Virus record (IMG/VR): IMGVR_UViG_2537561709_000015
Length of the DNA stretch: 1,783 nt
Direction: 5' to 3' (one strand)
Source of the DNA: a virus
Taxonomy: Duplodnaviria > Heunggongvirae > Uroviricota > Caudoviricetes
In this document: one piece after another, positions 1-1,783 of the stretch
Layout: each line of letters opens with the position of its first letter
Numbering within the stretch: position 1 is the first letter of the stretch
Translations under genes and position numbers: made by a program
The notes under the pieces: generated by a model
What the model was told of the DNA's origin: nothing
Databases searched by the model: none
Seen by the model: the letters and a program-made list of their open reading frames with translations, nothing else

Positions 1-261
1 CAGTACGTGGAAAACGGCGTCAAAAAGAACTTCCTGCCGGACAACACGCTGGTCCTGGGTAACACCAACAATAAAGGGCTGGTGGCCTATGGTGCGATAA
101 TGGATCAGGAAGCGGTAAGAACGGGCGCAACACAAAACATGTTTTACCCGAAAAACTGGATTGAGGACGGCGATCCGGCGATTGAGTACGTGCAGACACA
201 CAGTGCACCGCAGCCGGTACCGGCAGATATTCGCAAATTTGTTACCGTCAAAATTGGTTAA
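1..261 (+). CDS. E: Major capsid protein, C-terminal part (lambda gpE-like); 5'-truncated by the window edge, stop TAA at 259..261
   Basis: Frame +1 from position 1 translates QYVENGVKKNFLPDNTLVLGNT...YPKNWIEDGDPA...SAP..., which matches my recollection of the lambda gpE C-terminus (YVENGVKKNFLPDNTMVLGNT...YPKNWVTTGDPA...SAPLM...). The ORF track starts at an internal GTG at 7, but the homology extends to position 1, so the gene continues upstream of the window. Confidence 0.85.
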   Translation, partial: QYVENGVKKNFLPDNTLVLGNTNNKGLVAYGAIMDQEAVRTGATQNMFYPKNWIEDGDPAIEYVQTHSAPQPVPADIRKFVTVKIG

Positions 262-273
262 CGGGGGGATTCT

Positions 274-609
274 ATGGACACTCCATACATTGAGTTATTT
301 GCAGGCAGTCAGCAGGTATCCACGACGTTGGTACATTTTGCCGCTGATGCTGGCGTTATTCAGGAATTTACCCCGCTGATGCTGGCAGACAATGGCGAGT
401 TTAAGCCGTGGGATGGTCAGGAATCTGGCAAGGCTGTTTATCTGACCTCGTACCCTGTGGACACGTCAAAGCAGAAATCAGCACAGTGTTACAAGACGGG
501 GATATTCAATATTGCCGCCGTTAACTGGCCTGAGAGCGTCGACACCGATGCGAAAAAATGCGCCGCCTTTGCGGGTTCCGGCGTATCCGTTCAGCCGCTG
601 GCCCGATAA
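274..609 (+). CDS. D: Head decoration protein (lambda gpD-like), 111 aa
   Basis: Translation contains TPLMLADNGEFKPWDG...CYKTGIFNIAAVNWPESVDTDAKKCAAFAGSGVSV, resembling recalled lambda gpD (TPLMLDTSSRKLVAWDG...[36 protein letters not shown]). Length is close to gpD at about 110 aa. A GGGGGA Shine-Dalgarno sits at 264..269, and the gene starts 12 nt after the upstream stop. Confidence 0.8.
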   Translation: MDTPYIELFAGSQQVSTTLVHFAADAGVIQEFTPLMLADNGEFKPWDGQESGKAVYLTSYPVDTSKQKSAQCYKTGIFNIAAVNWPESVDTDAKKCAAFAGSGVSVQPLAR

Positions 610-621
610 GCAGGGGGAACG

Positions 622-1035
622 ATGGCAACGAATGAAAGCATCATGACGCTACCGCTGGCGAGTAAATTTAAAGTCGAAGCGCGGGCAATGGCTGACAGAG
701 GTTTATCAACCTATGAGGCCGTATATCAACTAAACAAACTGGAAGAGCAGGACAAGCCGTGCGCTGATGCGATTATGGCGCTTCATGAGCATAAAGACTA
801 TCAGCCGCTGTTGCGTGCAATGGCAAACGTGCCTTGTATCGATGTTGGTACGGCTAAAAGCATCCTTAGCATGACCATAGAGCAGGAACGTCCGAAGGTT
901 GCGCCGGAACTTACCGCAGCCTTTGAAAACTTTATGGACATGCACAGCCCGCAAGCCGTATCAGCTGGCATGGCATACGATGGCAGAAACCAGGGCGATG
1001 ACGGCGACATCGATCGCATACTGAAAACCATCTGA
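622..1035 (+). CDS. Hypothetical protein, 137 aa, function unknown; operonic with the capsid and decoration genes
   Basis: Intact ORF starting 12 nt after the gpD-like stop, with the same GGGGGA-type Shine-Dalgarno (613..618) as the preceding gene, and followed by a hairpin plus T-run terminator. I recognise no family. It has an acidic C-terminal segment (DGRNQGDDGDID). Confidence 0.6.
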   Translation: MATNESIMTLPLASKFKVEARAMADRGLSTYEAVYQLNKLEEQDKPCADAIMALHEHKDYQPLLRAMANVPCIDVGTAKSILSMTIEQERPKVAPELTAAFENFMDMHSPQAVSAGMAYDGRNQGDDGDIDRILKTI

Positions 1036-1040
1036 GACAA

Positions 1041-1063
1041 GGCCGGAGAAATCCGGCTTTTTT
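1041..1063 (+). terminator. Putative rho-independent terminator
   Basis: Perfect 6-bp stem GCCGGA (1042..1047) / TCCGGC (1052..1057) with a GAAA loop, followed by TTTTTT (1058..1063), starting 6 nt after the stop of the 622..1035 ORF. Confidence 0.55.
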
Positions 1064-1129
1064 ACGGGTCCTTCCTGGAATTATGGCCCGTTACGGGGCG
1101 GCGACCTCGCGGATTTTCGCTATTTATGA
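1064..1129. other. cos site core: lambda-like cosQ-side flank, cosN and the conserved right flank
   Basis: acgggtccttcctggaattatggcccgttacg-GGGCGGCGACCT-cgcggattttcgctatttatga aligns with the recalled lambda cos junction ACGGGTCCTTTCCGGTGATCCGACAGGTTACG-GGGCGGCGACCT-CGCGGGTTTTCGCTATTTATGA. By my count the left flank matches at about 22 of 32 positions, the 12-nt core at 12 of 12 and the right flank at 21 of 22. Confidence 0.8.
1096..1107. other. cosN 12-nt cohesive-end sequence GGGCGGCGACCT
   Basis: Exact match to the lambda 12-nt 5' cohesive end as I recall it, in the expected position upstream of a Nu1-like terminase gene. Confidence 0.8.
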
Positions 1130-1139
1130 GCCTTTTCAG

Positions 1140-1154
1140 GGTGGTGGTGGTGGT
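1140..1154. repeat. (GGT)5 trinucleotide tract, continuing into a G/T-rich run to about 1165
   Basis: Sequence ggtggtggtggtggt followed by tttgttgtttg, read directly from the window. Confidence 0.9.
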
Positions 1155-1201
1155 TTTGTTGTTTGATCTATCTTTATGAATGAAAAGGGAAAGATGCAAG
1201 C

Positions 1202-1239
1202 AATACACCAACCTGAAGCAGTAATTAAGTTGGTGTATT
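1202..1239. repeat. Perfect 11-bp inverted repeat AATACACCAAC (1202..1212) / GTTGGTGTATT (1229..1239) with a 16-nt spacer
   Basis: The two arms are exact reverse complements. The right arm ends 1 nt before the ATG at 1241. Confidence 0.9.
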
Positions 1240-1240
1240 A

Positions 1241-1783
1241 ATGAAATCTCATCTGATGAACAAAAAAAACATGGCGAAAAGCTGCCGTGTAAGTGCGACA
1301 GCGTTCGACAAGTGGGGAGTAACTCCCGTTGAGCGTAAAGGCCGTGAGGCGTTTTATGATGTTGCCAGCGTGATAGAAAATAGGGTTAACAATGCAATTA
1401 GCCAGCTTATAAACGACAAAGGCGAGATTGACGATGATGAACTTTTACGAGTCAGGATCAGATTACTGACAGCACAGGCAGAGGCGCAGGAACTTAAAAA
1501 CGATCGCGATCGCGGTGACGTGATTGATACTGAGTTTTGCCTGTACGCGCTTTCAAAGCTGGCGAGTCAGATTTCATCAATCATGGACAGCCTCCCGCTT
1601 ACTATGCAAAGGAGCTTCCCACAGATTACCCCCGCCATGCTGGACAGGCTTAAAAGGGAAGTGGTTAAAGCCTGTAATGCCAGTGCCAGAGTTGCCGACA
1701 ACCTCCCACAGATACTGGCTGATTACTTGAAAGAAACAACCGGAAACGTACCGGAAAAGTTGCTACAGAAGAAAGGCGAGTAA
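1241..1783 (+). CDS. nu1: Terminase small subunit (lambda Nu1-like), 180 aa; the true start may be the in-frame ATG at 1256
   Basis: Translation contains LTAQAEAQELKNDRDRGDVIDTEFCLYALSKLASQISSIMDSLPLTMQRSFP...LKREVVKACN, resembling recalled lambda Nu1 (LTRAQADAQELKNARDSAEVVETAFCTFVLSRIAGEIASILDGLPLSVQRRFP...LKRDIIKAMN). Lambda Nu1 is 181 aa, and the gene sits directly downstream of a lambda-type cos. Stop TAA at 1781..1783. Confidence 0.88.
   Translation: MKSHLMNKKNMAKSCRVSATAFDKWGVTPVERKGREAFYDVASVIENRVNNAISQLINDKGEIDDDELLRVRIRLLTAQAEAQELKNDRDRGDVIDTEFCLYALSKLASQISSIMDSLPLTMQRSFPQITPAMLDRLKREVVKACNASARVADNLPQILADYLKETTGNVPEKLLQKKGE

Follow-up and report, generated by a model that had tools for sequence, protein, structure and literature searches.

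The stretch of DNA analysed here, 1,783 nucleotides of the IMG/VR virus record IMGVR_UViG_2537561709_000015 (Caudoviricetes), is referred to below as the window, and it raises the question of why genes resembling those of the phage lambda head should stand in an order that lambda does not use. The lambda order is Nu1-A-W-B-C/Nu3-D-E, whereas the window presents a major capsid gene (E), a decoration gene (D), a 137-aa open reading frame (ORF), the cos site and a gene for the Nu1-type small terminase subunit (terS, protein TerS). The original prediction, made from the letters of the sequence, described this synteny as non-canonical and offered among its explanations a rearranged lambdoid module, a defective prophage remnant and a compact cos-packaged satellite resembling a phage-inducible chromosomal island (PICI). 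The last of these stands. Very probably the window represents the late zone, used for packaging, of a PICI of the classical Gram-negative kind in the EcCICFT073/EcCIIHE3034 family, an integrative satellite of about 11 kb that cannot form virions by itself and depends on a lambdoid helper phage. Its gene order is non-canonical relative to lambda but canonical for this satellite family, in which it was already known.

Gene order of the window and the island that carries it

The four genes of the window are collinear on the + strand and follow each other as E, D, ORF, cos and Nu1, an arrangement that had been predicted and is borne out by the ORFs, by Pfam and PHROG profiles and by the match to cos. 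Positions 1..261 hold 86 codons from the 3' end of a major capsid gene of the lambda E type (Pfam Phage_cap_E 3.9e-12; phrog_29 2.6e-26), which is followed by a gpD-like head decoration gene of 111 aa at 274..609 (Pfam HDPD 5.1e-18; phrog_49 1.5e-27) and by the 137-aa ORF at 622..1035 (phrog_1999 1.7e-68). The gaps between these genes, at 262-273 and 610-621, are 12 nt each, as predicted. Beyond cos lies terS at 1241..1783, coding for a complete Nu1-type small terminase of 180 aa (Pfam Phage_Nu1 3.2e-23; phrog_57 8e-53).

Positions 48-1783 of the window are found, collinear and at 100% identity, in complete chromosomes of Escherichia coli O157:H7, and at least 80% of the window is covered in 492 of 5,426 complete E. 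coli genomes. In strain PV15-279 this stretch forms part of an island of about 11 kb between roxA and phoQ, bounded by 75-nt imperfect direct repeats that are 10,978 bp apart. All genes of the island are on a single strand, beginning at the left end with a tyrosine integrase and continuing with AlpA, Icd-like genes, DUF4222, an AAA_25/RepA helicase, a protein binding single-stranded DNA (SSB) and PerC; next come a 68-aa ORF and the genes for the capsid (351 aa) and decoration proteins, then the 137-aa ORF, cos and terS, and last a 93-aa ORF. The 62-aa gene after the integrase matches Pfam Phage_AlpA (5.4e-17), and the RepA-type helicase (AAA_25 2.4e-43) together with SSB makes up a replication module of the island's own upstream of the late zone. 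Downstream of terS there is just the 93-aa ORF and then the right-hand repeat, and no large terminase (TerL), portal, protease, head-tail adaptor or connector, tail or lysis gene was found in the island annotation or among the ORFs after terS.

The original prediction had pointed to the surrounding genes as a check, and in the PV15-279 island the integrase and the repeats of the attachment (att) site are present while gpA, portal, protease and tail genes are absent. Since integrase, AlpA, helicase, SSB and repeats are present and TerL, portal, protease, tail and lysis genes are absent, the island has the layout of a classical Gram-negative PICI (PMC6092414; bioRxiv 10.1101/2022.09.14.508007; PMC10111431). 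Compared with the definition of Fillol-Salom 2018, which includes a size of about 10-20 kb and a site not used by prophages, the island shows an integrase with att repeats, AlpA, unidirectional genes, a replication module, a size of about 11 kb, and cos with its own terS.

Whether close relatives normally carry this order had been named as a decisive check, and they do: it is seen in EcCICFT073, in EcCIIHE3034 and in diverged islands, and the family is published (PMC6092414, PMC6739421, PMC10111431). EcCICFT073, the prototype Gram-negative PICI, of the Rpp type (PMC6092414, PMC6739421), shares with the window island the roxA-phoQ att site, the gene order, cosQ and cosN. Its capsid gene c1499 and decoration gene c1500 are followed by the 137-aa ORF, cos1, rppA and the 93-aa ORF, and the head-related proteins are 96-98% identical. 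It differs in that the position of terS is taken by rppA, whose product of 144 aa binds the TerS of the helper, and in the sequence on the cosB side. This published Rpp protein (PMC6739421) matches RppC (PDB 6HLK) at 5e-31. The Nu1-like gene of the window was considered as an Rpp and rejected, because its product has no similarity to RppA and no PDB match to RppC; the island is thus not of the Rpp type.

EcCIIHE3034 is listed as a PICI that 'encodes TerS' (PMC6092414), and its late zone, like that of the TerS-encoding EcCI18098 (PMC6092414), is the same as in the window, including the 68-aa and 93-aa ORFs and the terminator. The proteins of EcCIIHE3034 are 95% (capsid), 99% (D), 96% (137-aa protein) and 98% (TerS) identical to those of the window, and the cosB-side sequence is also the same. 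The differences are its own integrase, an att site between cspD and clpS instead of roxA-phoQ, and a primase in place of the RepA-type helicase. More distant islands at abgR-smrA (strain ETEC-2264) and cspD-clpS (strain DAX4) have the order capsid, decoration, small ORF, cos, TerS and 93-aa ORF, with capsid and decoration proteins just 55% and 54% identical and with an unrelated AlpA-like helix-turn-helix protein encoded by the third gene. Islands of Kosakonia and Superficieibacter likewise show the order E, D, gap, TerS. The phages lambda and N15 differ from the window island, in which gpA is absent after terS and the head genes lie upstream of cos as E-D-Nu3' (phage order Nu3-D-E); in the majority of loci of sufficient length, the Nu1 homologues of phages across genera have gpA directly after them.

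The island of strain TUM9803 carries TerS without the capsid/decoration pair, which shows the late zone to be modular. A "late zone" of captured helper late genes has been described in Gram-negative PICIs, 21 of the 29 reference members having a capsid gene (PMC10111431), and capsid-morphogenesis and terS genes are regarded as PICI core components (bioRxiv 10.1101/2022.09.14.508007).

On either side of the late zone there is a small conserved ORF. One, of 68 aa (phrog_3255; locus L001, 18953-19159), precedes the window-type capsid gene in the islands of O157, CFT073 and IHE3034 and in the Rpp-type island of locus L011, and the other, of 93 aa (phrog_1561; L001, 21992-22273), comes after terS or rpp, even where the capsid and decoration genes are absent.

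The left edge of the window and rival origins

The capsid gene of the window is not of one origin. Positions 48-261 are the capsid allele of the island, while positions 1..47 on the + strand, in frame with it, are identical to lambda E (0/47 mismatches; J02459 6900-6946), the identity to lambda running over 1-48. The island allele differs from the window at 24 of these 47 positions. The foreign origin of bases 1-47 was missed in the original prediction. Positions 1-48 are also identical to the E gene of a lambda-like prophage at icd in the O157 strain PV15-279, which has the orientation of the island and is separated from it by about 23 kb. The 47/48 join falls at codon 271 of lambda E, at about position 262 of the Phage_cap_E profile, and connects homologous codons in frame, with a perfect overlap of 1 nt inside a 15/18 patch.

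The best surviving alternative is that the sequenced molecule is a helper-satellite recombinant between a lambda-type E and the island capsid gene, in which lambda head genes would lie upstream of the island D. The in-frame join at homologous codons, the neighbouring prophage with the same E sequence and the documented capture of helper late genes by PICIs (PMC10111431) speak for such an event, which is conceivable though rather unlikely. The 1-nt overlap in the 15/18 patch is too short for ordinary homologous recombination, as it is for an assembly chimera based on k-mers. The junction was not found by megablast of window positions 1-140 in the 5,426 complete E. coli genomes, and the exact 47-mer across it has no match in GTDB representative genomes, IMG/VR or JGI metagenomes. 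Moreover, just 47 bases are concerned, at the window edge, where template-switching or trimming artefacts concentrate. Either a rare recombination between helper and satellite capsid genes or an artefact of the edge could lie behind the junction.

The junction was also considered as the att site E:Phage_cap_E:80 of a helper-embedded PICI (HE-PICI), a type defined by integration inside a late gene of the helper prophage (Tommasini 2023). This was rejected, as that site is at profile codon 80 and the junction at about 262, and as homologous positions are joined; the window island is chromosomal, at roxA-phoQ, in complete genomes. The layout expected of an HE-PICI at E:Phage_cap_E:80 is seen in Kosakonia sp. 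S29 (L013, 1982-6500; L049 is the same contig), where an island shows E, D, a gap and TerS, a lambda-E-like fragment of 262 aa lies about 1.2 kb downstream of it, and the contig also has Nu1 and gpA upstream.

Very improbable is a rearranged or decaying lambdoid prophage, of which the window would be a morphogenesis-module remnant with no present function. The window proteins are indeed homologous to lambda E, D, Nu3 and Nu1, and related islands at roxA-phoQ were once annotated as cryptic or defective prophages (PMC3378721). Decay is contradicted by the direct repeats, by the integrase, AlpA, helicase, SSB and unidirectional genes that make up the PICI core, and by the recurrence of the order in other genera and at no fewer than three att sites, its alleles being as little as 55% identical. 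For the capsid gene the ratio of nonsynonymous to synonymous substitution rates (dN/dS) is 0.13-0.18; the decoration gene has 0.05-0.15, terS 0.12-0.20 and the 93-aa ORF mostly 0.11-0.17. These low values, within 0.05-0.20, indicate that the genes are maintained and not decaying, and the ORFs are intact in hundreds of genomes. No phage TerS in the collection is above 44% identity to that of the window, so the zone was not left behind recently by any known phage. The rearranged module and the defective remnant of the original prediction are both disfavoured by the repeats, the PICI core and the purifying selection.

It is also most unlikely that the island is a capsid-forming PICI (cf-PICI), which would make its own small capsids, package itself and need from the helper the tails alone. 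The island encodes capsid, decoration, scaffold-like and TerS proteins, and the roxA-phoQ site also holds EcCIEDL933, the prototype cf-PICI, in strains Sakai and EDL933 (bioRxiv 10.1101/2022.09.08.507074). However, TerL, portal, protease and head-tail adaptor or connector genes, which are present in Sakai Sp7 at the same site, are absent from the island; its capsid protein is of the lambda E type, unlike the head gene of EcCIEDL933; and the orthologous EcCICFT073 is found in phage-sized capsids (PMC6092414). EcCIEDL933 (Sp7/CP-933C/O-island 51) shares with the window island the att site and a closely related integrase, AlpA, SSB and PerC/PchE module, but it measures 15.5 kb and is complete in its head and packaging genes, among them another type of major head protein as well as protease, portal, adaptor, TerS and TerL.

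The roxA-phoQ site (L001, L002, L005) thus holds three satellites depending on the strain, namely the TerS-type island of PV15-279 and of numerous further O157:H7 strains, the Rpp-type EcCICFT073 and the cf-PICI EcCIEDL933/Sp7 of Sakai and EDL933. It follows that O157:H7 strains differ in the occupant of 'O-island 51', the element described at this site as O-island 51/CP-933C/Sp7 (PMC3378721). Identification of the window island with O-island 51, CP-933C or EcCIEDL933 was rejected, Sp7 of Sakai being a 15.5-kb cf-PICI with a different head module.

That the synteny is an assembly chimera of unrelated phage fragments, as the multiple lambdoid prophages of O157, which make short-read misassembly common, and the foreign look of the left 47 bases might suggest, has a negligible probability, because the same order is found in independent, diverged islands and the closed O157:H7 chromosomes mentioned above contain positions 48-1783 intact, including the junctions at 262-273, 610-621 and 1036-1095 that the original prediction had suspected.

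The cos site and the small terminase

The assignment of a cos site in the original prediction proved correct. Window positions 1061-1140 are about 81% identical to lambda cos, and cosQ, cosN and the I2-like segment are kept relative to lambda. The cosQ sequence GGGTCCT (1066..1072, + strand) is common to lambda, the window, EcCICFT073 and all aligned island variants. The cosN core at 1096..1107 (+) is the 12-nt lambda cohesive-end sequence GGGCGGCGACCT, an exact match to the left end of lambda, and comparison with lambda shows that cosN is flanked by the conserved nicking region and the I2-like segment, up to about position 1129 (+).

On the cosB side, laid out in lambda as R3-I1-R2-R1, the R cores of lambda were not found in the window, which has a single N15-like R3-type motif instead. 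In N15 the sequence GTTGTTTAATC is located at bp 54-64 from the cos end, and in the window the 11-mer GTTGTTTGATC is located at bp 63-73; this N15-R3-like 11-mer occurs in 0 of 200 shuffles. The segment 1140..1168 (+), made up of (GGT)5 at 1140-1154 and then GTTGTTTGATC at 1158-1168, is kept in the four islands whose TerS is of the window type, and lambda and EcCICFT073 have a different sequence there. On its likeness to R3 of N15, it is proposed to be the R3-equivalent of cosB and the putative TerS-binding site of the island. The sequence CACCA[AC]C was also tried as a repeated R-like element; it is short and was found in related sequences, and it remains a weak lead, the N15-like 11-mer being better supported.

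The TerS protein is a full-length homologue of lambda Nu1, 36% identical to it from end to end, and its best phage match is gp1 of N15 (44%). The likeness to N15 is concentrated in the winged-helix DNA-binding domain, which is 60% identical to that of N15 versus 41% to that of lambda, so that the window resembles N15 in this domain as well as in the R3-like motif. The C-terminal half represents an island-specific lineage.

Among the islands the type of the TerS DNA-binding domain and the cosB-side sequence co-vary. In lambda and in the TUM9803 island, which has a lambda-like domain, the R core TCC[GT]TTCT lies at about +55/+56 (+), +107/+108 (-) and +156/+157 (+) from cosN, and it is present in none of the four islands with an N15-like domain. 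Judged from these alignments, a lambda-type cosQ/cosN combined with an N15-type cosB and a matching TerS would form a hybrid packaging site. This is a modest addition of the present work. The cosB analysis by Murialdo and Feiss covers the Rpp type only (PMC9026076).

The TUM9803 island itself (L009, 10441-11313) encodes a mosaic TerS, with a lambda-like DNA-binding domain and an island-type C-terminal half; its lambda-like R3, R2 and R1 cores have a lambda-like spacing, and a ProQ/FinO gene replaces the capsid/decoration pair. A second cosN core, in inverted orientation, is located between terS (or rppA) and the 93-aa ORF, about 180 bp past the right end of the window (L001, 21916-21927; L002, 11298-11309; L006, 10367-10378), and is also present after terS in EcCIIHE3034. 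Its position suggests that it corresponds to the published cos2 of EcCICFT073. The inverted copy was not found in the ETEC-2264, DAX4 and TUM9803 islands.

Between cos and terS there is a perfect 11-bp inverted repeat, AATACACCAAC / GTTGGTGTATT, at 1202..1239 (+), ending 1 nt before the ATG of terS and folding at -14.5 kcal/mol (z = -3.3). All 4 window-type islands keep the left arm; in ETEC-2264 and DAX4 the right arm is degraded, and the hairpin as such is therefore not conserved. The repeat is possibly a second TerS site or a hairpin for translational control.

In the course of the comparison, Nu1 and A genes 100% identical to those of lambda were met on short or low-coverage contigs of unrelated assemblies, including Kitasatospora, Paenibacillus, Bradyrhizobium, Oceanobacillus, Shewanella and others (L018-L023, L025, L027, L038, L044, L063 and similar). 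These most likely represent contamination with lambda control DNA.

Head genes of the island and the proposed route of packaging

The capsid protein of the island is 43% identical to lambda gpE over 326 aa. The decoration protein is 36% identical to lambda gpD and 98-99% identical to the proteins of EcCICFT073 and EcCIIHE3034. The third gene, the 137-aa ORF, has zero Pfam or NCBIfam matches and a weak match to the C-terminal scaffold part of phrog_53. Profile comparison by hhalign aligned its family with the protein P0041, a distant match, at 96.8% probability (E 2.2e-10, 112 columns), the alignment spanning the last repeat and the C-terminal F..FM..HSP..V.AG tail. P0041 is a Nu3 orthologue, as seen from 47% identity to lambda Nu3, matches to scaffold and capsid-assembly PHROGs and the contig order Nu3-D-E. 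Direct comparison of the 137-aa protein with lambda Nu3 gave a weak match (E 0.011) on the same C-terminal motif. The family is narrow, with 38 near-identical matches in E. coli and 8 in an HMMER scan of 1.84 billion representatives, and the AlphaFold2 model is all-helical and of low confidence (pLDDT 48), being based on a shallow alignment of 13 sequences at 83% identity or more. Two other assignments were unsupported: a head-tail connector, the name given by NCBI, for which there were zero Pfam or NCBIfam matches, and an FI-like packaging chaperone, for which hhalign against lambda FI and FII was negative.

By these comparisons the 137-aa protein is predicted to be a truncated homologue of the Nu3-type scaffold, with the last repeat and C-terminal tail retained and the N-terminus unique. 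In that case the island would have E and D followed by a truncated Nu3-like gene, an order opposite to that in phages although the orientation is the same. The scaffold-like identity of this conserved "hypothetical" gene after D is a modest addition to published descriptions of PICIs. A homologue 40% identical to the 137-aa protein is encoded in the Rpp-type island of L011 (Logan contig ERR3372453_225). A lambda-type cosN core was not found in the gap before the rpp-like gene of that island (L011, 2278-2438) even with one mismatch allowed, which hints at a different helper cos type.

The capsid, D and scaffold-like unit is closed just upstream of cos by a terminator-like GC hairpin followed by six T (1039..1063, +). 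RNA folding gave -14.1 kcal/mol with z = -5.0, and 0 of 200 shuffles were equally stable; a consensus terminator scan of the window did not report this hairpin, despite the stable direct fold and the T-run. An Rfam search of the whole window returned zero RNA families at E <=1. The terminator-like hairpin (GCCGGAG.AATCCGGC, then a T-run) occurs three times in the island late zone (L001 18353-18382, 18717-18746 and 20990-21019, the last being window 1037-1066), which suggests modular transcription units or recombination hot spots.

The E-like, D-like and truncated Nu3-like genes form a conserved, selected and optional module. Proteins by which satellites remodel capsids include CpmB of the Staphylococcus aureus pathogenicity islands (SaPIs) and Psu/Sid of P4. 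By analogy, the island trio most plausibly modifies the assembly or composition of the helper capsid, although this is speculative. The island differs from SaPI and P4 in using cos rather than pac and in having proteins unrelated in sequence, and in the E. coli family EcCICFT073 uses heads of phage size. In SaPIs a satellite small terminase (TerS-S of SaPI1 and SaPIbov1) redirects the large terminase of the helper to satellite DNA, and capsid-related proteins such as Ccm of SaPIbov5 are also encoded (PMC6092414; bioRxiv 10.1101/2022.09.08.507074). The window island would follow the same logic with its TerS alongside a capsid homologue, a decoration protein and a scaffold-like protein. The TerS strategy of the window island may be seen as the cos counterpart of the pac-type SaPI TerS and as an alternative to the Rpp of EcCICFT073.

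As a late zone of a classical PICI, the window would function in the following way. A helper phage would trigger excision and replication of the island, and the island TerS would bind the island's own cosB. The C-terminal half of TerS would recruit the gpA-type large terminase of the helper, which would nick the conserved cosN and package island DNA into helper-derived heads, with termination via cosQ.

Several points weigh against this interpretation. Bases 1-47 are not the island allele, and the source of the window may be a recombinant or an artefact rather than a canonical island. Compared with N15, the distance of the proposed R3 from cosN is 9 bp larger, and the spacing between R3 and cosN is reported to be critical in lambda (PMC9026076). 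Binding of TerS to cosB is a deduction from co-variation among a few related sequences. The C-terminal, presumably TerL-binding part of TerS is just 33-35% identical to those of lambda and N15. With regard to the head genes, deletion of c1499 or c1500 in EcCICFT073 gave no transfer or interference phenotype, and the capsids into which this island is packaged are of phage size (PMC6092414). E. coli PICIs of the TerS type have no known helper phage. When the resident prophages of IHE3034 and 18098 were induced with mitomycin C, the islands of these strains were not transferred (PMC6092414), so that mobility of the TerS type is still hypothetical. The experimentally characterised E. coli PICIs named in a 2025 paper are EcCICFT073 and EcCIEDL933 alone (PMC11773190).

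A bolder reading, which appears doubtful, is that the trio and the N15-type TerS/cosB form a working capsid-and-packaging specificity module, the island proteins co-assembling with those of the helper or replacing them, and that the 47/48 join is a real helper-satellite capsid recombinant. Were this so, heads would possibly be smaller or chimeric and filled preferentially by the island terminase complex, and helper and satellite capsid genes would exchange functional segments.

As a discovery the window carries little weight, being the standard late zone of published satellites within an O157 island that is routinely annotated. For the family as a whole, TerS-type islands are commoner than the well-studied Rpp type: at the sensitivity of megablast, window-type terS is present in 766 of the 5,426 complete E. 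coli genomes (about 14%) and rppA in 97. The putative Nu3-like gene completes a trio of capsid, decoration and scaffold genes, and the pairing of a lambda-type cosQ/cosN with an N15-type TerS domain and cosB offers a testable prediction on packaging specificity and helper choice. Islands of this kind carry regulators (RgdR, PerC) of LEE, the enterocyte effacement virulence locus, and their mobility is relevant to the evolution of enterohaemorrhagic E. coli (PMC3378721, PMC6092414).

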